A program made the position numbers and the translations under genes. The notes below the pieces were generated by a model. That model did no database searches, was not told the DNA's origin, and worked only from the letters and a program-made list of their open reading frames with translations. A DNA stretch of 64,000 bases, from assembly GCA_002490425.1 (NCBI GenBank), contig DKTZ01000035.1, forward strand, positions 12,024 to 76,023, in the 5' to 3' direction. Source of the stretch: Ruminococcaceae bacterium UBA7217. GTDB lineage: Bacteria > Bacillota > Clostridia > Oscillospirales > Acutalibacteraceae. This document shows, piece by piece, positions 35,876 to 49,597 of the stretch. Numbering within the stretch: position 1 is the stretch's first letter; each line of letters starts with the position of its first letter.

Positions 35876-35963
35876 ATTTTACGCATATTTACCTTTTTAA
35901 CTGATTGATTTTATTCGTCTGAAATACTATAATATTCAGTAACATAATGCTAAATAAACGGCG

Positions 35964-36893
35964 GTGAGAATTTTGAATATTTTACATATTAAATATGCGG
36001 TTGAGGTTGCAAAGGCAGGCTCGCTTAACAAGGCGGCGGAAAAGCTTTTAACTGCCGCACCGAATGTAAGCAGAGCCATAAAAGACCTTGAAGCAGACAT
36101 CGGCATTACAATTTTTGAACGCACAGCAAAAGGAATGGAAGTAACTCCCGACGGCGAGGAATTTATAAGCTATGCCAAAGGAATTTTAAATCAGATTGAA
36201 GAGGTCGAGGCTTTTTACAAAAGCGGCTCGGCAAAAAAGCAGAAATTTTCAATTTCAGTCCCCCGTGCTTGCTATATTTCAGAGGCCTTTGCACAGTTTT
36301 CAAAATCGCTTACTAAAGATTCAGCCGAAATTTTTTATAAAGAAACAAACTCTCAGCGTACAATCCGCAATATACTCGAAAACGGCTACAAGCTCGGAAT
36401 TATAAGATATGCTGAAAATTACGACAGATATTTCAAGGCAATGCTTGAGGAAAAGGGTCTTTGCTATGAGCTTGTTACAGAATTTTCATATTCGCTGATT
36501 ATGAGTGCAGAAAATCCGCTTGCGAAAAAAGAAACGGTAACATTTGACGATTTAACCGATTTCATTGAAATTGCCCACGCTGACCCGTACGTTCCCTCAA
36601 TGCCCCTTTCAAAGGTGGTCAAGGAAGAACTGCCCGACAACATTAACCGCCGCATATTCATTTTTGAGCGTGCAAGCCAATTTGATTTGCTTTCAAACAA
36701 TCCCGAAACCTTTATGTGGGTATCCCCTGCTCCGGAAAAACTGTTAAAGCGCTTCGGACTTGTTCAAAAAAAATGTGTTGATAACAAAAAAATCTATAAA
36801 GATGTGCTGATTTACAAGAACGGGTACAAATTATCCTCTCTTGACAGAGAATTTATTACGGAGCTTTGCAATTCCAAAAGAAAATATATGTAA
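35964..36893 (+). CDS. LysR-family transcriptional regulator
   Basis: N-terminal wHTH (LHIKYAVEVAKAGSLNKAAEKLLTAAPNVSRAIKDLEADIGITIFERTAKGM) and a C-terminal substrate-binding fold. The start is ambiguous between the GTG at 35964 and the TTG at 35973. Confidence 0.85.
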   Translation: MRILNILHIKYAVEVAKAGSLNKAAEKLLTAAPNVSRAIKDLEADIGITIFERTAKGMEVTPDGEEFISYAKGILNQIEEVEAFYKSGSAKKQKFSISVPRACYISEAFAQFSKSLTKDSAEIFYKETNSQRTIRNILENGYKLGIIRYAENYDRYFKAMLEEKGLCYELVTEFSYSLIMSAENPLAKKETVTFDDLTDFIEIAHADPYVPSMPLSKVVKEELPDNINRRIFIFERASQFDLLSNNPETFMWVSPAPEKLLKRFGLVQKKCVDNKKIYKDVLIYKNGYKLSSLDREFITELCNSKRKYM

Positions 36894-36906
36894 TTTTTCT
36901 TTTTTT

Positions 36907-36932
36907 CAGGTATTATATATATTGATAATACC
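36907..36932 (+). terminator. AT-rich 9-bp hairpin after lysR (a terminator, or a LysR T-N11-A-type palindrome)
   Basis: AGGTATTAT-ATATATTG-ATAATACCT followed by a T-rich tract. Confidence 0.35.
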
Positions 36933-36969
36933 TCTTATATATTTTAAGAATTCCTGTAAAGTAAAAACT

Positions 36970-36987
36970 ATGTTAAAATATTAACGA
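36970..36987 (+). promoter_or_regulatory. Rex-like operator upstream of adhE
   Basis: ATGTTAAAATATTAACGA matches the clostridial Rex consensus TTGTTAA-N4-TTAACAA at 12 of 14 specified positions. Confidence 0.5.
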
Positions 36988-37004
36988 AGTCAAAAAGTAA
37001 CAAA

Positions 37005-37033
37005 TTGACTAATATGTAATACTAAATATATAT
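37005..37033 (+). promoter_or_regulatory. possible adhE promoter
   Basis: TTGACT (37005-37010), 16-17 nt spacer, then a TATATA/ATATAT -10 element. Confidence 0.3.
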
Positions 37034-37049
37034 TTTCAGGAGGACTAAA

Positions 37050-39755
37050 ATGGAAGCTGAGAAATACGAAATCATTGACAGCGTTGAAAAGCTTGAAGAA
37101 GCAATAAAACGCACAAGAGAAGCTCAGGCAGAATTTGCAAAATTCACTCAGGAGCAGGTTGACAAAATCTTTCTTGCGGCGGCGTCGGCTGCAAATAAAG
37201 CAAGAATTCCGCTTGCAAAAATGGCTGTTGAAGAAACAGGAATGGGTGTTGTCGAGGACAAGGTAATTAAAAACAACTATGCCGCTGAATACATTTACAA
37301 CGCTTACAAGGACACAAAGACCTGCGGCGTTATTGAAGAGGATAAGGCTTTCGGCATTAAAAAGATTGCTGAGCCTATAGGCGTTATTGCCGCTGTTATC
37401 CCCACAACGAACCCCACATCTACCGCAATTTTCAAGTGCCTTATCGCTCTTAAAACACGCAATGCAATTATTATTTCTCCCCACCCGAGAGCTAAAAAGT
37501 CCACTATTGAGGCGGCAAAAATCGTTCTTGAAGCCGCTGTCAAGGCAGGCGCTCCCGAGGGCATAATCAACTGGATTGACATCCCCTCTCTTGAACTTAC
37601 AAATACCGTTATGAAAGAAGCGGACATTATCCTTGCAACAGGCGGCCCCGGAATGGTTAAAGCGGCTTATTCAAGCGGTAAACCTGCTCTGGGCGTAGGA
37701 GCCGGCAATACTCCCGCAATTATTGACGACAGTGCGGATATTCTTCTTGCAGTTAACTCAATTATTCATTCAAAGACCTTTGACAACGGTATGATTTGCG
37801 CATCTGAGCAGTCAGTCATTGTCCTTAAAGATGTTTATGACGCAGTTAAGGCGGAATTTGCCGCAAGAGGCTGTTATTTCCTCAAAGGTACTGAAATCGA
37901 AAAGGTTAGAAAGACAATCATAATAAACGGTGCGCTTAACGCAAAAATCGTAGGTCAGTCCGCCGCAAGAATTGCAGAGCTTGCAGGGGTAACCGTTCCC
38001 GAGGGCACAAAAATTCTTATCGGCGAGGTTGAAAATGTTGATATAAGCGAAGAATTTGCACACGAAAAGCTCTCACCCGTTCTTGCAATGTATAAAGCCG
38101 CAGACTTTGAGGACGCTCTCTCAAAAGCCGAGCACCTTATCGCTGACGGCGGCTACGGACATACATCTTCCGTTTATCTTAACGAGGTTACCGAGCAGGA
38201 AAAACTCCGTGAGTTTTCGGCGAGAATGAAAACCTGCCGTGTTCTTGTAAACACTCCGTCATCACACGGCGGTATCGGCGACCTTTACAACTTTAAGCTT
38301 GCTCCCTCTCTTACCCTCGGCTGCGGTTCTTGGGGCGGCAACTCGGTTTCGGAAAATGTCGGTGTAAAGCATCTTATTAACATTAAGACTGTTGCAGAAA
38401 GAAGGGAAAATATGCTTTGGTTCCGTGCGCCCGAAAAGGTTTACATTAAAAAGGGATGTCTGCCCGTTGCTCTTGACGAGCTTAGAACTGTAAGAAAAGC
38501 GCAAAAGGCATTTATTGTTACAGACTCATTCCTCTATGAAAACGGATACACTAAGCCGATTACGGACAAATTAGACGAAATCGGCATTGCACATACAACC
38601 TTCTTCAATGTTCAGCCCGACCCGACTCTTAAAAATGCTCAGGACGGCGTTGAGCAAATGAGAGCATTCAAGCCCGACACAATCATTGCTTTGGGCGGCG
38701 GTTCTGCAATGGACGCAGCAAAAATTATGTGGGTTCTTTACGAGCACCCCGAAGCAGACTTTATGGATATGGCAATGCGCTTTATTGATATCCGTAAGCG
38801 TGTTTACACCTTCCCCAAAATGGGCGAAAAAGCTTATTTCATCGCAATTCCCACATCGGCAGGCACAGGCTCAGAGGTTACCCCCTTTGCGGTTATCACC
38901 GATGAGAAAACGGGAGTTAAATACCCCCTTGCAGACTATCAGCTTATGCCCAATATGGCGATTATTGATACTGATTTCCATATGTCCGCACCAAAAGGTC
39001 TTACAGCGGCATCGGGTATTGACGCAGTAACACACGCTCTCGAAGCTTATGCGGCAATGCTTGCAACGGATTACACAGATTCACTTGCTATCGGTGCTCT
39101 TAAGAGTATATTCAAATATCTCCCCCGTGCTTACGACAACGGTCAGAACGATATTGAGGCAAGAGAAAAAATGGCTAACGCCGCAACAATGGCAGGTATG
39201 GCATTTGCAAATGCATTCTTAGGTGTTTGCCACTCAATGGCTCATAAACTCGGTGCATTCCACCACCTGCCCCACGGCGTTGCAAACGCACTTATGATTG
39301 AAGAGGTTCTGAGATTTAATGCGGCGGAAGCTCCCGCAAAAATGGGTACATTCTCACAGTATGACCACCCGCACACACTCGCACGCTATGCTGAAGTTGC
39401 AGACGCTTTAGGTCTCGGCGGAAAAACAGATGAAGAAAAGCTCGAAAATCTTATCAAGGCAATAAACGACCTCAAAGCAAGAGTCGGTATTAAAGAAACT
39501 ATTAAGGATTACGGCGTTGACGAAAAGGTATTCCTTGACAGACTTGACGAAATGACCGAACAGGCATTTGACGACCAGTGCACGGGCGCCAACCCGAGGT
39601 ATCCGCTTATGAGTGAAATTAAGCAGATGTACCTTAACGCTTACTACGGCGGCAGGCATTTCACCGAAAAAGCAATGCCAACAGCTTTAGATATTGAAGA
39701 TGTAGCCGAAACAGATAAAGTTAAAAAGAATTACCGCAAAGGTAAAAAAGCATAA
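37050..39755 (+). CDS. adhE: bifunctional acetaldehyde-CoA/alcohol dehydrogenase
   Basis: 901 aa. The N-terminal half is an ALDH domain (MICASEQS catalytic-Cys region) and the C-terminal half is an Fe-ADH domain (GGGSAMDAAK, the HSMAHKLGAFHHLPHG metal site). Confidence 0.95.
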   Translation: MEAEKYEIIDSVEKLEEAIKRTREAQAEFAKFTQEQVDKIFLAAASAANKARIPLAKMAVEETGMGVVEDKVIKNNYAAEYIYNAYKDTKTCGVIEEDKAFGIKKIAEPIGVIAAVIPTTNPTSTAIFKCLIALKTRNAIIISPHPRAKKSTIEAAKIVLEAAVKAGAPEGIINWIDIPSLELTNTVMKEADIILATGGPGMVKAAYSSGKPALGVGAGNTPAIIDDSADILLAVNSIIHSKTFDNGMICASEQSVIVLKDVYDAVKAEFAARGCYFLKGTEIEKVRKTIIINGALNAKIVGQSAARIAELAGVTVPEGTKILIGEVENVDISEEFAHEKLSPVLAMYKAADFEDALSKAEHLIADGGYGHTSSVYLNEVTEQEKLREFSARMKTCRVLVNTPSSHGGIGDLYNFKLAPSLTLGCGSWGGNSVSENVGVKHLINIKTVAERRENMLWFRAPEKVYIKKGCLPVALDELRTVRKAQKAFIVTDSFLYENGYTKPITDKLDEIGIAHTTFFNVQPDPTLKNAQDGVEQMRAFKPDTIIALGGGSAMDAAKIMWVLYEHPEADFMDMAMRFIDIRKRVYTFPKMGEKAYFIAIPTSAGTGSEVTPFAVITDEKTGVKYPLADYQLMPNMAIIDTDFHMSAPKGLTAASGIDAVTHALEAYAAMLATDYTDSLAIGALKSIFKYLPRAYDNGQNDIEAREKMANAATMAGMAFANAFLGVCHSMAHKLGAFHHLPHGVANALMIEEVLRFNAAEAPAKMGTFSQYDHPHTLARYAEVADALGLGGKTDEEKLENLIKAINDLKARVGIKETIKDYGVDEKVFLDRLDEMTEQAFDDQCTGANPRYPLMSEIKQMYLNAYYGGRHFTEKAMPTALDIEDVAETDKVKKNYRKGKKA

Positions 39756-39773
39756 ATAAGGGAGGGCGACACA

Positions 39774-40523
39774 ATGAAACTTGACAGAGTAATAGCAGTA
39801 AGAAACAGTAAAACCGTTTACCGTGACGGCGACAGATGCATTAAAGTTTTCAATGAGGATTATTCCAAGGCAGATGTACTCAACGAGGCTCTCAATCAGG
39901 CAAGAATTGAGGAAACAGGTCTTAACATTCCTAAAATTCTTGAAGTCAGTATGATTGACGGCAAATGGGCAATTGTTTCGGAATATATCAAGGGTAAAAC
40001 TCTTCAGCAGCTTATGGATGAAGACCCTGACAAGAAAAACGAATATATTGAGATGCTTGTTGACATTCAGCTCGGTATTCACGAAAAGGAATGTCCGCTT
40101 CTTAACAAGCTTAAGGATAAAATGAACAGAAAAATCTGCCAGAGCACACTTGACGCAACAACACGCTATGACCTGCACACCCGCCTTGAGGGTATGCCCA
40201 AGCACAAAAAGGTTTGCCACGGCGACTTTAATCCCTCAAACGTAATAATTACAGAGGACGGCACGCCCTATATTATTGACTGGGCACACGCAACACAGGG
40301 CAATGCCTCGGCAGACGCCGCAAGAACATATCTTCTCTTCTGGCTCGGCGGCGACATTGAGGGTGCAAAGACATATCTTGATATATTCTGCAAAAAAAGC
40401 AATACCGCAAAGCAATATGTTCAAAAATGGATGCCCATTGTTGCCGCTTCACAGTCAGTTAAGGGCAATCAGGCAGAAAGAGAATTCCTGCTTTCCTGGG
40501 TAGATGTTGTAGATTACGAATAA
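39774..40523 (+). CDS. APH/choline-kinase-fold (eukaryotic-like kinase superfamily) phosphotransferase-like protein
   Basis: Candidate ATP-binding Lys in CIKVF (K24), hinge SEYIKG, catalytic-loop (Brenner) motif CHGDFNPSNVII (H149-N156) and metal-binding IIDWAHA (D169). Confidence 0.65.
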   Translation: MKLDRVIAVRNSKTVYRDGDRCIKVFNEDYSKADVLNEALNQARIEETGLNIPKILEVSMIDGKWAIVSEYIKGKTLQQLMDEDPDKKNEYIEMLVDIQLGIHEKECPLLNKLKDKMNRKICQSTLDATTRYDLHTRLEGMPKHKKVCHGDFNPSNVIITEDGTPYIIDWAHATQGNASADAARTYLLFWLGGDIEGAKTYLDIFCKKSNTAKQYVQKWMPIVAASQSVKGNQAEREFLLSWVDVVDYE

Positions 40524-40535
40524 GGAGTTAAAATT

Positions 40536-40775
40536 ATGAAGGTTACGGTTTGCATCGGCAGTTCATGCCACATTAAGGGTTCAAGACAGGTTGTTGAACA
40601 GCTTCAGTATCTTATCAGCGAAAACGGTCTCGGCGATAAGGTTGAGCTTGGCGGCACATTCTGTATGGGCAAATGCCAGCAGGGCGTCTGCGTTACCATT
40701 GACGGCGAGTTTTTCTCAGTTTCACCTGAAACAGTGGAAACATTCTTTAATGACAATATAAAAGCAAAGCTTTAA
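40536..40775 (+). CDS. thioredoxin-like [2Fe-2S] ferredoxin (NuoE/HydC-like, 79 aa)
   Basis: Cys pattern C6-x4-C11 ... C43-x3-C47 in VCIGSSCHIKGS...GGTFCMGKCQQG. Confidence 0.7.
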   Translation: MKVTVCIGSSCHIKGSRQVVEQLQYLISENGLGDKVELGGTFCMGKCQQGVCVTIDGEFFSVSPETVETFFNDNIKAKL

Positions 40776-40834
40776 TACTGCGTAATTTTTAAAAAGGGTT
40801 ACATCTGCCGGAAAAAACGGCGGGTGTGCCCGAT

Positions 40835-40863
40835 TTGACGTTTTTATACATTTCAGTTACAAT
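40835..40863 (+). promoter_or_regulatory. near-consensus sigmaA promoter for hydS-pp2c-hydA
   Basis: TTGACG (40835-40840), 17-nt spacer, TACAAT (40858-40863). Confidence 0.55.
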
Positions 40864-40897
40864 GATATTAAAATAAATTGAGAGGATGTAACGGATA

Positions 40898-42577
40898 ATG
40901 CCGAACTGTTTAACATTAAAAAAATCCAACTGCAAAAACTGCTATAAATGTATTCGCCACTGTCCCGTAAAGGCAATCCGTTTTTCGGGAAATCAGGCTC
41001 ATATCATCGGCAACGAGTGTATTCTTTGCGGTCAGTGCTTTGTTGTCTGTCCTCAAAATGCAAAGGAAATTGTTGACGAAACCGAAAAGGTTAAGGTTCT
41101 TCTTCAGTCGGGCGACCCCGTTATTGTCAGTCTTGCACCGTCATTTGTTGCCAATTACGACGGCACGGGAATAAATTCAATGAGAAAGGCACTTAAAAAG
41201 CTGGGCTTTTACGATGTTGAAGAAACGGCAATCGGTGCAACAATAGTAAAAACAGAATACGAAAGAATGATTAAAGAGGATGAGAGGGATCTTATAATTT
41301 CCTCATGCTGTCATTCCATAAATCTTCTTATTCAAAAGCATTACCCCGCGGCGCTCCCGTACCTTGCGGACATAATGTCCCCAATGCAGGCGCACTGTAC
41401 CGATATAAAAAAGCGTTATAAAAATGCTAAAACCGTTTTCATAGGACCTTGCGTTGCAAAAAAGGACGAGGCAGAGCATTACGAGGGAATTGTCGACGCA
41501 GTTTTAACCTTTGAGGAACTAACCCAATGGCTGAAAGCAGAAAACATTGAAATTGAGTCGGAAACAGACAACGATGTTTGCAGCCGTGCGCGTTTCTTCC
41601 CGACAACAGGCGGTATACTTAAAACTATGGCTCAGGAAAACACGGGTTATACATATTTAGCAATTGACGGAGTTGAAAACTGTATTGCCGCACTTAAAGA
41701 CATCGAAAGCGGTAAAATTCATAACTGCTTTATTGAAATGTCAGCTTGTGTCGGCAGCTGTTCGGGCGGCCCCGTTATGGAGAAATACCACCGCACAGCG
41801 GCAGTTAAGGATTACATTACCATTGCAAATTATGCAGGTCCTAAGGATTTTGAGATATCTCAGCCTGCGGCAAAGGACCTTAAAAAGAACTTTGAATTTA
41901 TTGAACAGCGTCTTCCGCAGCCGAGCGAGAGTGAAATTAACGCAGTGCTTCGTCAGATGGGCAAATTCAAGCCCTCACAGGAGCTTAACTGCGGCTCCTG
42001 CGGCTATAATACCTGCCGTGAAAAGGCGGCGGCGATAATTCAGGGTAAGGCTGAAATTTCAATGTGTCTGCCTTTCCTTAAGGATAAAGCCGAGAGCTTT
42101 TCCGATACTGTTGTCAACAATTCACCAAACGGACTTATTGTACTTAACGAACAGCTTGAGGTTCAGCAGATTAACAAAGCCGCAAAAGAAATTATGAACA
42201 TCCGCTATGACTCGGATGTTCTCGGCACGCAGGTTATAAGAATCCTTGACCCTGCGCCCTTTATGAAGGTTCGTGACACAGGCAGAGGAATACACAACGA
42301 GCGTGTTTACCTTGCCGAATACAAGCGTTACGTTGAGCAAACCATTGTTTACGACCGTGATTCAAGAATGCTTGTGGGCATTATGCGTGATGTTACCGAC
42401 GAGCAGTATGAGAGAGAAAAGAAAGAGGATATAAGCAAGCAAACAGTTGAGGTTGCCGACAAGGTTGTTGAAAAGCAGATGAGAATTGTTCAGGAAATAG
42501 CATCACTTCTCGGTGAAACCGCCGCTGAAACGAAAATTGCACTTTCAAAGCTTAAGGAGTCAATAACCGATGAATGA
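40898..42577 (+). CDS. hydS: HydS-type (group C, putative sensory) [FeFe]-hydrogenase homologue with a C-terminal PAS domain
   Basis: Two CxxCxxCxxxCP ferredoxin motifs (residues 11-22 and 41-52). H-domain motifs are SSCCHS (135-140), GPCVAKKDE (183-191) and EMSACVGSCSGGP (280-292). An extra motif C365-x2-C368-x4-C373-x16-C390 follows, then a PAS-like region (about 400-520) and a helical tail. Confidence 0.8.
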   Translation: MPNCLTLKKSNCKNCYKCIRHCPVKAIRFSGNQAHIIGNECILCGQCFVVCPQNAKEIVDETEKVKVLLQSGDPVIVSLAPSFVANYDGTGINSMRKALKKLGFYDVEETAIGATIVKTEYERMIKEDERDLIISSCCHSINLLIQKHYPAALPYLADIMSPMQAHCTDIKKRYKNAKTVFIGPCVAKKDEAEHYEGIVDAVLTFEELTQWLKAENIEIESETDNDVCSRARFFPTTGGILKTMAQENTGYTYLAIDGVENCIAALKDIESGKIHNCFIEMSACVGSCSGGPVMEKYHRTAAVKDYITIANYAGPKDFEISQPAAKDLKKNFEFIEQRLPQPSESEINAVLRQMGKFKPSQELNCGSCGYNTCREKAAAIIQGKAEISMCLPFLKDKAESFSDTVVNNSPNGLIVLNEQLEVQQINKAAKEIMNIRYDSDVLGTQVIRILDPAPFMKVRDTGRGIHNERVYLAEYKRYVEQTIVYDRDSRMLVGIMRDVTDEQYEREKKEDISKQTVEVADKVVEKQMRIVQEIASLLGETAAETKIALSKLKESITDE

Positions 42578-43742
42578 TTTATGTGCCGATATTGGATATA
42601 AAAGTATAAATCATTACGGCGAAGAACTTTGCGGCGACCATGTTGACATTGTTGAGCCGAATGATGAATCAACCGTTATTGTGCTTTCGGACGGTCTTGG
42701 AAGCGGCGTTAAGGCGAGCATTCTCTCTACTCTTACGTCAAAAATTATTTCTACTATGCTGTCCGAAGGCTTATCGCTTGAGGAATGTGTTGAAACCATA
42801 GCCGCAACCTTACCTGTTTGCTCGGTAAGGGGCGTTGCTTATTCGACATTTACGATTATTCACCTTAAGCAAAACCAAACCGCTGAAATTATTCAGTACG
42901 ATAACCCCCATGCAATTATTATCCGTGACGAGAAAAATTGGGACTATCCCAAAACGGAAATGAATATAGGCGGAAAGAAAATTTTTAAATCCGTTATCAA
43001 ATTGCAGGAAAATGACATTTTTATCGCAATGAGCGACGGCTGTCCCCACGCAGGCATAGGCACTGCCTACAATTTCGGCTGGAAGAGAGAGGATATAATC
43101 ACCTTTATGGAGGCGCTCGCACACGTCGGATACACTGCGAAAACGCTTTCCACAATGCTTGTTGACGAATGTGACAATCTTTACGGTCACGAGCCGGGCG
43201 ACGATGCAACAGCCTGTGTTGTAAAAATACGAAAAAGAGAGCCGATGAATATTCTGTTCGGCCCGCCCTCAAACCGTGACGATGCAGACAGAATGATGTC
43301 CCTGTTTTTCGGGAAAGAGGGCAAGCACATTATCTGCGGCGGAACAACCTCGTCAATTGCCGCTAAATTTTTGAGAAAGCCTCTCAGAGCATCGCTTAAT
43401 TTTGAGCAGAGCGACATTCCCCCTATTGCGGAGCTTGAGGGTGTTGACCTCGTAACCGAGGGCGTTATTACTGTCAACAGAGTACTTGAATACGCTAAGG
43501 ACTACCTTGCGGAGAATAAGCAGTACGAGCATTGGGGCTTTAAAAATGACGGAGCGTCTTTAATTTGCCGTTTGCTTTTTGAAGAGGCTACGGATATAAA
43601 CTTTTATGTTGGCAGAGCAATAAATCCTGCTCACCAAAACCCCGACTTGCCCATAAATTTCAGCATAAAAATGAATCTTGTTGAAGAGCTTTCAAAATGT
43701 CTTAAACAGATGGGCAAAAAAATCAAAGTCAGTTATTTTTAA
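42570..43742 (+). CDS. PP2C/SpoIIE-family serine phosphatase with an uncharacterised ~170-aa C-terminal domain
   Basis: CGD (21-23), DGLGSGVKAS (41-50), MSDG and DDATACVV motifs. The start overlaps the hydS stop (ATGAATGA). Confidence 0.8.
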   Translation: MNDLCADIGYKSINHYGEELCGDHVDIVEPNDESTVIVLSDGLGSGVKASILSTLTSKIISTMLSEGLSLEECVETIAATLPVCSVRGVAYSTFTIIHLKQNQTAEIIQYDNPHAIIIRDEKNWDYPKTEMNIGGKKIFKSVIKLQENDIFIAMSDGCPHAGIGTAYNFGWKREDIITFMEALAHVGYTAKTLSTMLVDECDNLYGHEPGDDATACVVKIRKREPMNILFGPPSNRDDADRMMSLFFGKEGKHIICGGTTSSIAAKFLRKPLRASLNFEQSDIPPIAELEGVDLVTEGVITVNRVLEYAKDYLAENKQYEHWGFKNDGASLICRLLFEEATDINFYVGRAINPAHQNPDLPINFSIKMNLVEELSKCLKQMGKKIKVSYF

Positions 43743-43808
43743 GTCGGCGAGTATAATCAGATAAAAAACTGTTTCGGATTGTATTTGTCAACTCAAGGAG
43801 AAAGCAGT

Positions 43809-45230
43809 ATGAGAAAATTTGACACCAAGGTTCAGTATTTGAAATATAAGGTTTTAAGAGAAGTGGCTAACCGTGCGTGGAACGACACTTTGCTTCCGAC
43901 CTTGTTTGATATACCAAAGGCAATAGTTCCCGGCAAGACCTCGACCATGCGTTGTTGTGTCTACAAAGAACGCGCAATTTTGGGCGAACGTGTAAAAATC
44001 GCAATGGGCGGCAACAAGGAAAACCCAAATGTTATTGAGGTTATTGACATTGCCTGTGATGAATGTCCTGCGGCAGGTTATGAGGTAACCGACTCGTGCA
44101 GAGGCTGTCTTGCCCACAGGTGTGAGGACGTCTGCAAAAGAGGAGCTATTTCATTTGACCACAATCACGTGGCACACATTGACAAGTCAAAGTGTGTTGA
44201 ATGCGGTCAGTGCGCAAAGGTTTGCCCATATTCGGCGATTATTAACCGTAAGCGCCCCTGCCAAATCGCCTGCAAGGTAAAGGCAATTTCGATAAATGAA
44301 GAAAATGCCGCCGCTATTGACAATAACAAGTGTATTCAGTGCGGTGCTTGCGTTTACCAGTGCCCGTTCGGCGCAATTACCGATAAATCGTACATCTTGA
44401 ATGTAATTGATATGATAAAAAAGAGCGAGAACAATCAAAAATACAAGGTTTATGCCGTTGTCGCTCCGTCAATTTCAAGTCAGTTTAATTATGCAAAGCT
44501 CGGTCAGGTTATTTCGGGGCTTAAAGAGCTTGGCTTTTTTACAGTTGTTGAAGCGGCACTCGGAGCGGATATGGTAGCAATGGCGGAATCAAAAGAACTC
44601 AGCGAAAAGGGCTTCCTTACAAGCTCATGCTGTCCTGCATTTGTGCAGTATATAAAATCCTCATTCCCTGCTCTTTTGCCCTTCGTTTCTCATAACCTTT
44701 CCCCCATGGCAACGCTTGCGAAATACATAAAGGAAACAGACGGAAATGCAAAGGTTGTGTTTATAGGTCCGTGCACAGCTAAAAAAGCCGAAGCACAGCT
44801 TGACAGTGTGAAGCCTTATGTTGACTCAGTGCTTACCTTTGAGGAGCTTCAGGCGCTTTATGACAGCAAGGATATTGACATTACAACGCTTCCGGAAGAT
44901 GTGCTTGACAATGCCTCTTATTACGGCAGAATTTTTGCCCGTTCCGGCGGACTTTCCGATGCAGTGGCACAGGGACTTAAAGAACAAAATATTGACTTTA
45001 CTGTAAAACCCGCAGTTTGCGACGGAATTGAGGCTTGCAAGGTGGCTCTTCTCAAAAAAAGCAAAAATGTGCTTGATGCCAACTTTATTGAGGGTATGGC
45101 GTGCATTGGAGGGTGCATCGGCGGCGCAGGCTGTCTTACCCACGGCGAAAAGAACAAGGCTGAGGTTGACAAATATGGCAAAGAGGCTTATGAAAAAACC
45201 ATAGGCGATGCCGTATCTTTTATTAAATAA
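43809..45230 (+). CDS. hydA: [FeFe]-hydrogenase, catalytic type (473 aa; motif pattern suggests group B)
   Basis: Cys-rich N-terminus (RCC, CDEC, CRGC..C...C). Two 4Fe-4S motifs (CVECGQCAKVCP, CIQCGACVYQCP). H-cluster motifs TSSCCPAF, IGPCTAKKAE and EGMACIGGCIGGAGC. The ATG at 43809 follows AAGGAG. Confidence 0.85.
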   Translation: MRKFDTKVQYLKYKVLREVANRAWNDTLLPTLFDIPKAIVPGKTSTMRCCVYKERAILGERVKIAMGGNKENPNVIEVIDIACDECPAAGYEVTDSCRGCLAHRCEDVCKRGAISFDHNHVAHIDKSKCVECGQCAKVCPYSAIINRKRPCQIACKVKAISINEENAAAIDNNKCIQCGACVYQCPFGAITDKSYILNVIDMIKKSENNQKYKVYAVVAPSISSQFNYAKLGQVISGLKELGFFTVVEAALGADMVAMAESKELSEKGFLTSSCCPAFVQYIKSSFPALLPFVSHNLSPMATLAKYIKETDGNAKVVFIGPCTAKKAEAQLDSVKPYVDSVLTFEELQALYDSKDIDITTLPEDVLDNASYYGRIFARSGGLSDAVAQGLKEQNIDFTVKPAVCDGIEACKVALLKKSKNVLDANFIEGMACIGGCIGGAGCLTHGEKNKAEVDKYGKEAYEKTIGDAVSFIK

Positions 45231-45249: not shown

Positions 45250-45281
45250 GGGCAGATACTTTTTTTGTATCTGCCTTTTTG
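45250..45281. terminator. bidirectional terminator between hydA (+) and the B12-regulated operon (-)
   Basis: AGGCAGATAC-TTTTTTT-GTATCTGCCT followed by TTTTT. A-rich sequence on the other side serves the minus strand. Confidence 0.75.
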
Positions 45282-45307: not shown

Positions 45308-46444
45308 TCAATCAGCCTGTTTCTTCTTTTTCATTACAAAAGCGGTTGAAGCAATAACGCCGAGGGATATTACCGCCACAGACAATACCGAAAATCCGCC
45401 GTCCGTATTGGGAATATCGGGATTTTTATCGACACCGCTGTTGCCGTTTTCCGTGCTCGGTTCTGTAACATCAGGTGTATTGGGCTTTGTATCGGGATTG
45501 TCGGGAGTGACATCGGGAGAATCGGGAGTGTTTTCGGGCAAAATGCTGTAATATGCAGAAAGTCCCTTTATTGCATCCGCCGCTGAATATTTGCTTTCAG
45601 CGCCGTCATAAGTGTAGCTTCCCTCTGTTTCGCCCTTAAACGCCAAAAGTGCATTATACAAACCGGTAAGCTCTGAAAGATTTTCACTTACAGTACCTTT
45701 ATATGTGTAATATGCACATTTTGCCATTAAAGCAAGCGCCGTTGAGTTAACATTGGGCGCTGTGCCGTACTCAGGGTTATAGCAATATCCGCCCTCTGTT
45801 TTGTATGTGTCAAGTACCTTTGCCGCGTCATCAATATAAGCGTTATAACAGTCAAGTCCGCTCTGCGAAATTGCCGAAAGGAACATTGCCGTATTGTCAC
45901 AGCCATAACCCCAGTAATCCATACCGCTTCCCATAGTGTAATAATTCTCAATAAAGCTGTCACAAAGCGATTTTACAAAAGCTTCGCCGCAATACTTTGC
46001 CGCAACGGGAATAATGAAATTATAGAAATAAGGACTTGAAACCTCTTTGTTATCAAGCTTTTCAAAAAGCTCAACAAGGTTTACGGAATTCACATTTGTG
46101 GGGTCGCCGCCCATAGCGTCAAGTATGCCGATTACAGCAGCATAAGAGCTTATATTTTCGCCGTAAGCCGTAACTAATTTTCCGTCGTTATCGTCAAGAT
46201 TTGCCTTTACACTTGCAAGAAATCCGTTATAAAACGCATTTGCGCTTTCGCTCGTACCTACAAGATAGTAATAATCCGCAGCGTTGTCTGCCGTATAGCC
46301 TGAAGCCGCACTGCTTACATAGCCGACCGCATTATCAATTTCTTTCTTAACGCTGTCCTTGCTCGTTAAGCCGACTGCCAATACCGACAGCGAAAGTGAC
46401 AAAGCGAGAATAAGTGCTAAACAGATTGATAAGGTTTTTTTCAT
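45308..46444 (-). CDS. secreted, C-terminally anchored surface protein with an aromatic/Gly-rich helical-repeat domain (prenyltransferase/terpene-cyclase-like alpha/alpha toroid suspected)
   Basis: Signal peptide (MKKTLSICLALILALSLSLSVLA). About 290 aa rich in Y/W/G/A repeats. Pro/Asp/Thr-rich linker (PENTPDSPDVTPDNPDTKPNTPDVTEP). The end is IPNTDGG, a hydrophobic helix and KKKKQAD, resembling a sortase-type or plain TM anchor. Confidence 0.55.
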   Translation of the reverse strand: MKKTLSICLALILALSLSLSVLAVGLTSKDSVKKEIDNAVGYVSSAASGYTADNAADYYYLVGTSESANAFYNGFLASVKANLDDNDGKLVTAYGENISSYAAVIGILDAMGGDPTNVNSVNLVELFEKLDNKEVSSPYFYNFIIPVAAKYCGEAFVKSLCDSFIENYYTMGSGMDYWGYGCDNTAMFLSAISQSGLDCYNAYIDDAAKVLDTYKTEGGYCYNPEYGTAPNVNSTALALMAKCAYYTYKGTVSENLSELTGLYNALLAFKGETEGSYTYDGAESKYSAADAIKGLSAYYSILPENTPDSPDVTPDNPDTKPNTPDVTEPSTENGNSGVDKNPDIPNTDGGFSVLSVAVISLGVIASTAFVMKKKKQAD

Positions 46445-46488
46445 TTTTTATTGCTCCTTTAATTTTTATTCAAAGACAGCGGTTTTTT

Positions 46489-47169
46489 CTAACAAACATA
46501 AGAAAGAACTATGCTGTCTCCGTTTTTTATTTTATAATTTCCGAGTCCCACGCTCGGAGATTTACCGTTAACGGTATAAACCCAACCGCTCTGTGCTCCG
46601 CAGTCCTTTTCTTCAATACCACCGATGCCCACAACATAAACACCGAAAGAAGATTTTTGTGCGTTAAGAGCTATACCTTTTTGGACGCAGGCCTTTTGCA
46701 AAACGTCAAAAGCCGAAGCACCGTCATCGAAATTCACGCTTACAGGCGAAAGAATTATTCCGTTTGACGGAACAAGGGAAATATCCTTTTTAAATTTATT
46801 TTTCTTGCTGAGTATTGATTTACACTCTATTTCAACGGTACAAACCGTTTTTGGCTGAGGCTGTGTAGATTTTTCGGTAGTGGTTACCGTAGGTACCGTG
46901 CTGATTTCGGTTTTTGACGAGGGATTTTTCGTTTCCGTATTTCCCTTTTCGGTACTGCCGTGAGTCTTTGTGATTTCAGTTGAATTTGTTTCACTCGAAT
47001 TTTCAATAGAAATGACACTTTCTTTTTCCGAATATTCCGATGTGTTTTCTGCCGTGCCTGTATTTTCACCGATTGCACTTACATTCAGTTCTGCATTCGG
47101 CGATTTTCCGCAGGCAGAAAACGAAATACATATTATTAAGGATAAAACAACTGCGATAATCTTTTTCAT
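46489..47169 (-). CDS. DUF4430-domain lipoprotein (homologue of the transcobalamin beta-domain)
   Basis: Lipobox in MKKIIAVVLSLIICISFSAC-G and a Ser/Thr/Glu-rich linker. The C-terminal ~110 aa carry DUF4430 hallmarks (CTVEIECKSIL, GASAFDVLQKA, YVVGIGGIEEKDCGAQSGWVYTVNGKSPSVGLGNYKIKNGDSIVLSY). The start is taken at the ATG at 47169. Confidence 0.75.
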   Translation of the reverse strand: MKKIIAVVLSLIICISFSACGKSPNAELNVSAIGENTGTAENTSEYSEKESVISIENSSETNSTEITKTHGSTEKGNTETKNPSSKTEISTVPTVTTTEKSTQPQPKTVCTVEIECKSILSKKNKFKKDISLVPSNGIILSPVSVNFDDGASAFDVLQKACVQKGIALNAQKSSFGVYVVGIGGIEEKDCGAQSGWVYTVNGKSPSVGLGNYKIKNGDSIVLSYVC

Positions 47170-47172
47170 AAG

Positions 47173-47199
47173 CAAAAAACCTCTGCTTTTGGGCAGAGG
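47173..47199 (-). terminator. expression-platform terminator of the cobalamin riboswitch
   Basis: The minus strand reads CCTCTGC-CCAAAA-GCAGAGG followed by TTTTTT, ending 4 nt before the ATG of the DUF4430 gene. Confidence 0.65.
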
Positions 47200-47261
47200 T
47201 ATAGTGTAAAGATAAGTTTCTTTAACTCTCCCGCTTGCCCAAGAGTTTAACAAAATTTTAG

Positions 47262-47440
47262 CTTAAGGCAGGTCTCCCGACTTGAGACAAAGCTGACTTT
47301 TAATCAGCGCATAAGCACGCCTTCTCGAAAAAAATCCAATGGCAATTGTGCTTAATTCATCTGATACGGTAATGGCGGTTGCTCAGGATTCTGACCTGAT
47401 TCCCTTTTAATTTCGGTTTCCCGAAAACCGTTAAGCAAAT
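47262..47440 (-). promoter_or_regulatory. cobalamin (B12) riboswitch
   Basis: The minus strand reads AAAAGGGAATCAGGTCAGAATCCTGAGCAACCGCCATTACCGT ... TTGCCATTGG ... GAGAAGGCG ... AAGTCGGGAGACCTGCC. This matches the conserved GGGAA-GGTG-AA-TCC core, the GCCACTG-like element, and the B12 box (consensus rAGYCMGgAgaCCkGCc). Confidence 0.85.
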
Positions 47441-47454
47441 ATTTAATTGTATTT

Positions 47455-47828: not shown

Positions 47829-49505
47829 TTACGCTTTGTAATCCGTCGCATAGGTGTCTGCAATTGACTGAACCTCATCTTTTGAAATAACGCCGTCAAT
47901 TGTTATGCCGTCTGCTCTTTGAAGATTTACCTTTTCGAGTGTGTCACGCTCAAGCAGGTGTCTTAAGGCAAGTCTTGCGTCAACAAGGTCAATGGTGCCG
48001 TCCATATTAACATCACCGTATTTATCAAGATAAACAGACATATAGTCAGCGTCAATATTGTAATACAGGAACTGAGTGAACAGCGGATTTGAATGAACGG
48101 TATACTGTTTGTCAGCCGTTATAAGCCATGCGTGAAGCGCCGCTGAGCTGTCGCTGTAAAACTTAACGTGATCCAAATTCTTAATAAACCATGTGCACTC
48201 GGGGAAAGCGCAGGTAGAAGCATCAACCACTGTGTCGGGTGAAACGTGATTGTGCCCGTCGGAATTCTTCTGAGCATAATTTTCACCGAGAGTTGTGTTT
48301 CTGTCTGCAACCGTTGCGCCGTAGCTTGTGTGTGCTGTTTCGATTATGCCGTCTGAGTTCATTGTGGACGACGGTGTTACGGGAGCTATCTGGCGGTTAT
48401 AGTTTGAAACTATGCTGAAGCAGATATTTTCATCCTTATAATACTCGTCACAACGCTCTTTAAGTGTTGCCTGAACCTCATCGTGATAAGCCGTCAGCTT
48501 TTCAATGTAAGAATCAGACGGGCGGAATGAGAAAGTATCGTTGTTATACATATAGTTAATTGCTTCGTCGAATTTATCTTCGGGGACAAATGACCAAACG
48601 CCGGCATACATTCCGAAATACGGAATCAAAAGCTCATCATAAAGTCTGTCCTTATATTCGCCTTCATTAAGGAGCGGAGCAAATTTTTCAATAACCTTTT
48701 CAAAAAGTCCTGTGTATTTTAAGAGCTCACCTAAAGCATTTTTATCGGGACTGCCGTTAATTGCCTGAACCAAAATGTCGGTAAGTCCGTCAGCGTCAAC
48801 GCTGAGTTTGCCTGTGAAAAGGTCACCGCACATTTCAAGTCCTGTAAATGCTCCTGAGAACATACCTATATTTTTAATATCTTTTGTTCCGTACTGCGCT
48901 AAATATGCCTGAACAATGCAAGTACCCATTGACTGACCGTTTATTGACACCTTGTCGTGGCCTGTTGTTTTCTTTACCTTTTGAATATAATCGTTAAGGT
49001 CTTTAGCGGTATCCATAGGGCTTCTGCGCCAGTCATGGCTGAAAATAAACGTGTGGTCGCCGCCGACTGTTTTGGCACATTCAAGGGAAAGTCCGTCCTG
49101 ACCGTCGCCTTTGATTTTGTAATCGTATGTATCGCAGCTCTCTTCATAAAAGCGTTCAACCGTAACCGTCGGGTCAACCGAGTCGCCGTTTTCGTCACAT
49201 TTAATCGGGTCAAAAAGCTGTTTTGCTGCAGGAATAACTGAGTCAAGCAAAGCGCCTGCGTCACCGTCCGAAAGGAACTGTAAAAGTGATGGAACACAAG
49301 GCAGAACCGCCTCAACTATTGTTTTTGCCTCAGGAGCAAAAACCTGAGTTCCCTCGCCGTTAACAAGCGGAACATGACCGAAGCCTACTACGGAAACTAC
49401 GGGAGTTTTACCGCAGTTGCACTTTTTCTCTGCCGCAAACGACGGAGCAAGCATTGAAAACATCATCAATGCGCAAAGTATTACGCAAACTATACGTTTT
49501 TTCAT
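47829..49505 (-). CDS. secreted alpha/beta-hydrolase (LCAT/PGAP1-like lipase/esterase) with a C-terminal dockerin
   Basis: Signal peptide MKKRIVCVILCALMMFSMLAPSFA. HDWR motif and nucleophile elbow GQSMGT. The C-terminus is dockerin-like (GDVNMDGTIDLVDARLALRHLL ... ADGITIDGVISKDEVQSIAD). Confidence 0.7.
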   Translation of the reverse strand: MKKRIVCVILCALMMFSMLAPSFAAEKKCNCGKTPVVSVVGFGHVPLVNGEGTQVFAPEAKTIVEAVLPCVPSLLQFLSDGDAGALLDSVIPAAKQLFDPIKCDENGDSVDPTVTVERFYEESCDTYDYKIKGDGQDGLSLECAKTVGGDHTFIFSHDWRRSPMDTAKDLNDYIQKVKKTTGHDKVSINGQSMGTCIVQAYLAQYGTKDIKNIGMFSGAFTGLEMCGDLFTGKLSVDADGLTDILVQAINGSPDKNALGELLKYTGLFEKVIEKFAPLLNEGEYKDRLYDELLIPYFGMYAGVWSFVPEDKFDEAINYMYNNDTFSFRPSDSYIEKLTAYHDEVQATLKERCDEYYKDENICFSIVSNYNRQIAPVTPSSTMNSDGIIETAHTSYGATVADRNTTLGENYAQKNSDGHNHVSPDTVVDASTCAFPECTWFIKNLDHVKFYSDSSAALHAWLITADKQYTVHSNPLFTQFLYYNIDADYMSVYLDKYGDVNMDGTIDLVDARLALRHLLERDTLEKVNLQRADGITIDGVISKDEVQSIADTYATDYKA

Positions 49506-49597
49506 TTCAAACATCCTTTCCCAAATTGAAACAATATATAACCGAATTTATTTTACCATAAATCTCCTTTGAAATCAACTGTGTTCTTTTAACAAAA

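Follow-up and report, generated by a model that had tools for sequence, protein, structure and literature searches.

We analysed a stretch of 64,000 nt (64 kb; hereafter the window) from Ruminococcaceae bacterium UBA7217, which contains an island of seven co-oriented open reading frames (ORFs) on the + strand at positions 35964–45230: lysR, adhE, a gene for an APH-like phosphotransferase, fdx, hydS, pp2c and hydA. The original prediction, made from the letters of the stretch, had described this island as a signalling system that couples the alcohol dehydrogenase AdhE to an [FeFe]-hydrogenase through the sensory hydrogenase homologue HydS. Domains were assigned by Pfam and NCBIfam profile searches of the seven island proteins. 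All seven genes lie where they had been predicted and each family assignment was upheld; every domain is backed by a profile match, with the match to PAS just under its cut-off. Identical island proteins in the same layout were also found in public metagenome assemblies. The features of the island are as follows.

35964–36893, + strand: lysR, first gene of the island, predicted LysR-type transcription regulator of 309 amino acids (aa) (PF00126 HTH_1, E=1.6e-16)
36908–36933, no strand assigned: palindrome AGGTATTAT-N8-ATAATACCT, 26 nt, containing a dyad conserved across species
36922–36951, + strand: promoter-like TTGATA-18-AAGAAT, with a –10-like block TTTTAAGAATT conserved across species
36970–36987, no strand assigned: candidate Rex operator ATGTTAAAATATTAACGA, with 2 mismatches to the consensus TTGTTAANNNNTTAACAA
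37050–39755, + strand: adhE, bifunctional acetaldehyde-CoA/alcohol dehydrogenase, 901 aa (NF010378, 1402 bits, cut-off 951)
39774–40523, + strand: APH/choline-kinase-fold phosphotransferase-like protein (hereafter the kinase), 249 aa (PF01636), starting 18 nt after adhE
40536–40775, + strand: fdx, thioredoxin-like [2Fe-2S] ferredoxin, 79 aa (PF01257, 30.3 bits, cut-off 24.8)
40776–40897, + strand: 122-nt gap between fdx and hydS, with an imperfect hairpin and a TTGACG-17-TACAAT site at 40835–40863
40898–42577, + strand: hydS, sensory-type [FeFe]-hydrogenase homologue, 559 aa (profile hits and motifs)
42570–43220, + strand: PP2C/SpoIIE phosphatase domain, residues 1–217 of the pp2c product (PF07228, 52.6 bits, cut-off 25)
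43221–43742, + strand: C-terminal alpha/beta domain of the pp2c product, 173 aa (residues 218–390), without family assignment
43809–45230, + strand: hydA, [FeFe]-hydrogenase of the group B monomeric ferredoxin-dependent type, 473 aa (TIGR04105, 565 bits, cut-off 450)
45251–45275, no strand assigned: bidirectional intrinsic terminator closing the island, with a 9-bp stem GGCAGATAC/GTATCTGCC followed by a T-run

A megablast search of the island core against plasmids gave no match at the nucleotide level. At the protein level, a translated search matched HydS over its full length, with 71.9% identity, to a protein on plasmid pRUMAL01 of Ruminococcus albus 7. The annotated gene order on that plasmid is LysR-Rex-adhE-phosphotransferase-Fdx-Fdx-HydS-SpoIIE-HydA2, and all seven window proteins have orthologues there in the same order and orientation, with aa identities of 66–81% (LysR 66%, AdhE 75%, Fdx1 77%, HydS 72% and HydA2 79%, with the kinase at 81% and the phosphatase at 80% the best conserved). 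Judged by protein identity and gene order, the island is a chromosomally located orthologue of the adhE-hydS-hydA2 cluster published for R. albus 7. The two also share an 8-nt overlap of hydS and pp2c and a dyad ahead of the first operon gene, which is TATC-N6-GATA in R. albus. They differ in three respects. The R. albus cluster is on a megaplasmid, whereas the island of the window lies between housekeeping genes of the chromosome; the window has no rex, and Rex would act in trans on a strong operator; and the window lacks the second ferredoxin gene and has instead the 122-nt gap with its promoter-like site. Clusters of this kind have been known since 2014 and the novelty claimed for the window does not hold. 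The original prediction had regarded as unusual both the presence of adhE inside the island and that of an APH-fold gene as the sole kinase, but both are features of the R. albus 7 cluster and of most of the 80 species described below.

The flanks of the island consist of housekeeping genes (relA, recJ, mfd, prfA, sua5, murC and a polyamine ABC transporter), and the guanine-cytosine (GC) content of the island (0.41–0.45) is that of the flanks and is even across the region. The location of the island is therefore chromosomal. Recent horizontal transfer of the island was considered and set aside on the same GC values.

Conservation of the gene order was surveyed in species-representative genomes with a profile made from a closer 10-sequence alignment of the kinase. 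Relatives of the kinase occur in at least 596 species genomes, and partners were counted in the best 80 of these (76–91% kinase identity), with the evaluable loci as denominators. These 80 loci come from gut metagenome-assembled genomes labelled Clostridia, Acutalibacteraceae, Oscillospiraceae or Ruminococcus. In them adhE is directly upstream of the kinase in 62/65 loci, at a distance of 17–40 nt in most. Fdx is present in 66/76, a second Fdx in 59/73, HydS in 61/71, PP2C in 56/66, HydA in 47/58, an upstream LysR in 45/54 and Rex in 29/54. As had been predicted, synteny of hydS-pp2c with adhE and the kinase holds for most relatives. The window has the R. albus type of order, lysR-(rex)-adhE-kinase-fdx-(fdx)-hydS-pp2c-hydA, with neither rex nor the second fdx, a state that it shares with a minority of relatives; about half of the relatives carry rex within the operon.

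The loci that depart from this order are informative about how the genes associate. In about 10 of 66 close species, LysR-adhE-kinase is followed by varied unrelated genes without PP2C. More divergent relatives, taken from a metagenome set and binned by kinase identity, have adhE adjacent in 13/18 loci and HydS present in 4/17 when the kinase is less than 70% identical; the figures are 19/22 and 13/24 at 70–80% and 11/11 and 12/12 at 80% or more. The kinase thus accompanies adhE (62/65) more faithfully than it accompanies hydS (61/71, falling to 4/17 below 70% identity). Conversely, Monoglobus has Fdx-HydS-PP2C with a group B hydrogenase (HydB) and neither adhE nor the kinase, and one lineage (L003–L006) has LysR-adhE-kinase-fdx-HydS-PP2C without hydA. 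In three species genomes (L053, L058 and L084) and on at least one metagenome contig, kinase-fdx-hydS has no adhE next to it; further upstream, L058 has an AdhE-like gene with 39% identity. On metagenome contig L116 (4505–9270) there are two paralogues of the kinase. On these gene orders the island is a composite of two modules that are also found apart, lysR-(rex)-adhE-kinase and fdx-hydS-pp2c-hydA, with the kinase at the hinge.

The region between lysR and adhE holds a conserved promoter. An alignment of this region from 21 rex-less species contains four conserved blocks only, which are the dyad, the –10-like block, the Rex box and the ribosome-binding site. In the window the dyad has the form TATA-N6-GATA (36914–36927; TATC-N6-GATA across species) and overlaps the –35-like TTGATA at 36922–36927. 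The palindrome that contains it is a candidate LysR-binding site. The same dyad and –10-like block occur in R. albus 7, where they are placed upstream of rex. The LysR protein itself has a good match to HTH_1 (60 bits) and a weak one to LysR_substrate (17.9 bits, cut-off 28), and aligns over its full length to models of LysR-type regulators, the best being CidR (76 bits, cut-off 415). Its gene is preceded by a promoter-like TTGATT-17-TATAAT at 35905–35933.

The Rex-like box that had been predicted ahead of adhE is real. At a threshold of 2 or fewer mismatches to the clostridial Rex operator consensus TTGTTAANNNNTTAACAA, ATGTTAAAATATTAACGA is the sole site in the whole 64-kb window, which gives a chance expectation of about 0.004 per region as estimated from that single site. 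At the same threshold, about 25 of the 28 rex-less loci have a Rex box ahead of adhE, and 9/27 loci have one ahead of rex. As in the Rex regulon of Clostridia, an operator of this type stands ahead of adhE, here with 2 mismatches and conserved in relatives; unlike in that regulon, it also stands ahead of genes for a kinase-like protein, a sensory hydrogenase and a phosphatase. An alternative promoter that had been proposed, TTGACT-18-TATATT at 37005–37034, falls in a non-conserved stretch. The original prediction also held that the island has no conventional output module. This overlooks its LysR gene and the conserved adhE promoter with LysR-type dyad and Rex operator, which, on the conservation of these motifs, would be bound by the two regulators and would constitute a conventional output.

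The hydS gene had been predicted to have its own promoter. The TTGACG-17-TACAAT site exists, but in most relatives the place of the 122-nt gap between fdx and hydS is occupied by the second ferredoxin gene, fdx2. The closest relatives have fdx2 just 15–35 nt ahead of hydS, and the promoter-like site is therefore specific to the lineage of the window, where it accompanies the loss of fdx2. We also considered the gap as a decayed fdx2, but a comparison showed no homology to that gene.

HydS consists of a 2x[4Fe-4S] region (aa 8–55), an H-domain (aa 74–292), a C-x2-C-x4-C-x16-C motif (aa 362–392) and a putative PAS domain (aa 404–499). Its profile matches include Fe_hyd_lg_C (178 bits), two copies of Fer4 and the 4-Cys FeS family PF04060 (43.9 bits). 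Its motifs are SSCCHS, GPCVAKKDE and EMSACVGSC, as compared with TSCCP, MPCxxKxxE and ExMACxxGC in catalytic enzymes. All four cysteine ligands of the H-cluster are retained and two methionines of the pocket are replaced (MPC to GPC and xMAC to MSAC, that is, M-to-G and M-to-S). These features, together with the linkage to PP2C, bear out the earlier view of HydS as a sensory-type homologue with an altered pocket. The CC pair (residues 137–138; 41306–41311), which includes the cysteine that serves catalytic enzymes as proton relay, aligns with the TSCCP motif of the catalytic HydA of Thermotoga maritima, and is kept in the HydS of R. albus and Monoglobus as well. TmHydS from T. maritima and TamHydS from Thermoanaerobacter mathranii resemble the HydS of the window in their FeS clusters, H-domain and extra Cys motif and in having methionine replacements near the H-cluster, and they have a PAS domain where the HydS of the window has a putative one, but they lack the cysteine of this pair, which contacts the H-cluster amine (PMC11376134). 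By contrast with HydS, HydA has canonical H-cluster motifs (TSSCCPAF, GPCTAKKAE and EGMACIGGC). Its start is an ATG behind AAGGAG, whereas the mechanical ORF begins with the TTG at 43779. A HydA of 473 aa is also what was called independently on metagenome contigs that encode identical proteins.

The phosphatase gene (ORF 42570–43742, 390 aa) starts 8 nt before the end of hydS, as had been predicted. This overlap is conserved in 52/55 loci and therefore argues for a stoichiometric complex of HydS and PP2C. The metal-binding motifs GD, SDGLGSG and MSDG align to SpoIIE crystal-structure sequences. The C-terminal domain has the invariant motifs CGGTT, EGVDLVTEGVIT, DGAS and NPAHQ in an alignment of relatives, and these persist in the Monoglobus PP2C, which is 57% identical. 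The model of this domain has a Rossmann-like alpha/beta fold (predicted local distance difference test, pLDDT, 84.5). The domain had no match in Pfam and no fold match in the PDB at E≤1e-3 (template-modelling, TM, score ≤0.45), and no mention of it was found in the literature examined.

A SpoIIE-family phosphatase domain is also found in the partner-switching phosphatases SpoIIE, RsbU and RsbP. The input to the RsbP phosphatase is presumed to come through a PAS domain. In the window the putative PAS domain is instead on a separate, translationally coupled protein, and the phosphatase carries a C-terminal domain without a structural match. We rejected a partner-switching module: no gene for a STAS protein, an RsbW/SpoIIAB-type kinase or a HATPase_c domain was found among the island genes or the scanned ORFs of the window. 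No sigma factor was found in the island or window, and no histidine kinase or response regulator in the window. The original prediction had likewise noted the absence of STAS, RsbW-type kinase, histidine kinase and response regulator genes. In another gut species, that of lineage L003–L006 (e.g., L003 4331–12937), the hydA-less island stands back to back with a spoIIAA (STAS)-spoIIAB-sigF operon and spoIIIA genes. This adjacency is restricted to that species and is probably coincidental.

Together, these data make it probable that the composite operon installs a 'high-H2' fermentation branch in an uncultured Oscillospirales bacterium of the animal gut, controlled by LysR and Rex, with HydS and PP2C providing an H2 input and with the kinase linked to AdhE. 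AdhE would carry electrons from NADH to ethanol and the group B ferredoxin-type hydrogenase from reduced ferredoxin to H2. Transcription would start upstream of adhE, where the LysR protein of the island may activate the promoter via the dyad at –35, and where Rex, encoded elsewhere in the genome, would repress until NADH/NAD+ rises with the accumulation of H2. The rising NADH at high H2 would then turn on AdhE and the ferredoxin-type hydrogenase. HydS is predicted to bind H2 at its modified H-cluster and to control the translationally coupled PP2C via the PAS domain; the phosphoprotein substrate of PP2C would be something other than a STAS protein encoded nearby. In this way HydS-PP2C would add a direct H2 input on the expression or activity of AdhE and HydA. 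The APH-like protein would be mainly an AdhE-linked accessory and may be a writer opposing PP2C.

Published work on related systems is consistent with this reading. The eight-gene cluster of R. albus 7 was 111-fold lower in co-culture with an H2 consumer, and direct H2 sensing via the PAS domain and a phosphatase was proposed by Greening et al. 2019 (PMC6776011). In Thermoanaerobacterium the HydS homologue is hfsB, and deletion of hfsA/hfsB raised the adhE transcript 2–3-fold, with hints of post-transcriptional control (PMC5707799). Compared by published description only, the hfsABCD operon of T. saccharolyticum shares with the window a core of HydS, PP2C and group B hydrogenase (HfsB HydS-like, HfsC PP2C and HfsD HydA2-like) and is genetically tied to adhE expression and to ethanol yield; unlike in the window, adhE is unlinked and the operon contains no APH-like kinase or LysR gene. 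The earlier suggestion that the island decides between ethanol and H2 as electron sink is plausible, and matches both R. albus 7 (PMC6776011) and the hfsB-adhE link in Thermoanaerobacterium (PMC5707799). As a comparison, the HoxBC-HoxJ-HoxA system of Cupriavidus necator (Ralstonia eutropha) also uses a hydrogenase homologue as an H2 sensor that steers hydrogenase expression via phosphorylation (PMC5707799). However, that sensor is of the [NiFe] class and works with a histidine kinase and a response regulator, neither of which is in the window. A 2024 review agrees with the original prediction that the route downstream of HydS is unresolved (PMC11376134).

Several observations weigh against the reading of the island as an H2-responsive fermentation branch. 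The PAS domain of HydS scores 21.8 bits, just under the cut-off of 22.6, and PAS_8 scores 18.8 against 21.8. With its retained proton-relay cysteine, HydS could possibly turn over H2 rather than act in sensing alone. In many rex-containing relatives a search of 260 nt gave no good Rex box. Promoter hexamers alone are no better than chance, with 19 promoter-like matches found against 16.4 ± 3.8 expected in shuffled sequence. Finally, the synteny survey started from the kinase, and its counts therefore do not give the fraction of all HydS-PP2C loci that have one.

The role of the kinase is where the alternatives are strongest. It scores 52.1 bits against PF01636 (cut-off 23.2) and 21.7 bits against Pkinase (cut-off 31.7), where only the catalytic loop is matched. 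The catalytic residues K24, E38, H149-G150-D151, N156 and D169 are intact. Aligned with one another (A1), 29 diverse family members share a conserved beta-3 lysine, an alpha-C glutamate, HGDxxPxN and IDW, with a short GNxxxD segment where the activation loop would be and no activation segment. The nearest solved structure by sequence is a choline kinase. The AlphaFold model (pLDDT 95) was compared with the PDB by Foldseek: the top 50 matches were all APH(4), APH(3'), LicA or YtaA (TM 0.6–0.7), and no Hanks-type kinase was among them. By its score, its HxDxxxxN loop, its IDW aspartate and its fold, the protein belongs to the APH/choline-kinase (CAK) family; with Pkinase below cut-off and no activation segment, it does not qualify as a Hanks-type Ser/Thr kinase.

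The family is large, with at least 8000 relatives at E<1e-5 in a protein search and 357 representative clusters at E<1e-30 in an exhaustive search, nearly all of them single-domain proteins of about 250 aa. Both catalytic aspartates are kept in 152/155 loci of the adhE-linked clade. Of the family representatives that diverge most, about a quarter lack the catalytic and/or metal-binding aspartate (P0252, P0254, P0342, P0372, P0375, P0390 and P0293; alignment A1), and these may be decaying copies. The idea of a pseudokinase beside adhE was dropped, as P0254, the one examined, is a singleton whose contig, of 928 bp, offers no gene context.

One alternative, possible but held only tentatively, is that the APH-like protein is a small-molecule kinase belonging to adhE, which acts on an AdhE-tied metabolite or cofactor or on a LysR co-inducer, and that HydS-PP2C signals to an unrelated target elsewhere. 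The fold and the HGDxxPxN ... IDWxHxxxGNxxxD pattern are those of the choline/aminoglycoside kinase family, and the protein has a weak match to thiamine kinase. adhE is its tightest genomic partner, at the short spacing described above, and LysR-adhE-kinase is the minimal conserved unit. On the other hand, no substrate can be named, 249 aa is at the small end for the family, and in a few loci the kinase accompanies the HydS module where adhE is missing. The very high cross-species conservation would fit a protein–protein interface equally well.

The original prediction had inferred a different role, in which HydS reports H2 to PP2C, and PP2C undoes a phosphorylation carried out by the APH-fold kinase on a common protein target, be it AdhE, HydA, Fdx or LysR, so that ethanol or H2 is chosen. 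In most close relatives both genes are in one co-oriented cluster, and in the three species genomes mentioned above kinase-fdx-hydS-pp2c occurs with no adjacent adhE. The kinase and PP2C, with mean identities across species of 82% and 81%, are among the best-conserved island proteins (HydS 77%), and none of the catalytic residues of the kinase is missing. Protein kinases such as YihE/SrkA are known among APH-fold proteins. The hints of post-transcriptional AdhE control in Thermoanaerobacterium would also fit (PMC5707799). The idea of signalling from HydS to an adjacent kinase is not new, however; as summarised in PMC5707799, Zheng et al. had already proposed in 2014 that HydS senses H2 and signals via PAS to the adjacent Ser/Thr kinase, and to that extent their proposal favours this role. 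It is weakened by the distribution and the fold of the kinase. The kinase tracks adhE: about 10/66 close species, and the majority of divergent relatives, have these two together with no PP2C. Both catalytic aspartates are intact in 34/34 kinase loci that lack HydS. Monoglobus and Thermoanaerobacterium, in turn, have HydS-PP2C without the kinase. All of the top 50 fold matches are small-molecule kinases, and the lack of an activation segment and the sub-cut-off Pkinase score point the same way. We consider this role doubtful. From the fold matches and the genomic distribution, a protein kinase that opposes PP2C is therefore one possibility and not the default; a small-molecule or AdhE-directed role may fit at least as well. 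The APH-like protein would thus be primarily an AdhE-linked accessory, whose substrate may be a small molecule or a protein.

A more specific version is less probable again. In this, AdhE or LysR has a protein kinase of its own in the APH-fold protein, the HydS-gated PP2C is the eraser, and the C-terminal domain of PP2C has a docking or regulatory role, which would make the island an H2-controlled Ser/Thr phospho-switch. If true, this would be the first time that the signalling below a sensory [FeFe]-hydrogenase has been worked out.

Rather improbable, too, is a reading in which HydS serves a multi-subunit Hfs-type hydrogenase (Fdx-HydS-HydA) as a catalytic subunit of low activity or as an electron-transfer subunit, with PP2C merely regulating that enzyme. 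The four H-cluster cysteines and the adjacent proton-relay cysteine are retained, Fdx, HydS and HydA travel together, and the hfs operon of Thermoanaerobacterium was first described as the main hydrogenase. However, one lineage keeps LysR-adhE-kinase-fdx-HydS-PP2C with no HydA, and the M-to-G and M-to-S changes of the pocket, the putative PAS domain and the extra FeS motif are typical of sensory enzymes. In addition, deletion of hfsA or hfsB affects H2 more than deletion of the whole operon does, which argues for regulation (PMC5707799). An accidental juxtaposition of unrelated genes, which the chance-level frequency of promoter-like and terminator-like matches might have allowed, is refuted by the synteny survey, with the same order in dozens of species (76–91% kinase identity), tight spacing and a conserved overlap, and by the co-regulation of the R. 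albus orthologues (PMC6776011).

Other features of the window are outside this system. The gene next after the terminator is on the opposite strand, and no known RNA element was found within the island. No rex gene was found in the 64-kb window. The maturase genes hydEFG, as predicted, are not in the window, where the sole radical-SAM ORF is HemZ. Convergent with hydA is a group of genes on the – strand:

47250–47447, – strand: cobalamin riboswitch (96 bits), preceding the next two genes
46489–47253, – strand: DUF4430 protein
45308–46444, – strand: 378-aa protein without a family hit, with a Pro/Asp/Thr-rich C-terminal stretch, a hydrophobic anchor and KKKK

These genes (45308–47447) are probably a B12-controlled surface or uptake operon. 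Beyond them, a secreted-looking protein of 561 aa (47829–49514, – strand) had no Pfam or NCBIfam match at 1e-5; its C-terminus resembles, by eye, a dockerin calcium-binding loop (DVNMDGTIDLVD).

The comparison narrows the question of how the island works. The kinase-like gene is a partner of adhE with a small-molecule-kinase fold and not an obligate partner of the phosphatase, and translation of the phosphatase is coupled to that of the sensor in nearly all loci. To these are added a conserved extra domain in the phosphatase and a promoter that would be regulated through its putative LysR-type and Rex sites. These comparative results provide testable handles for the R. albus and Thermoanaerobacterium systems. 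H2 sensing and the switching between acetate/H2 and ethanol in gut fermenters underlie interspecies hydrogen transfer and the methane output of the rumen.

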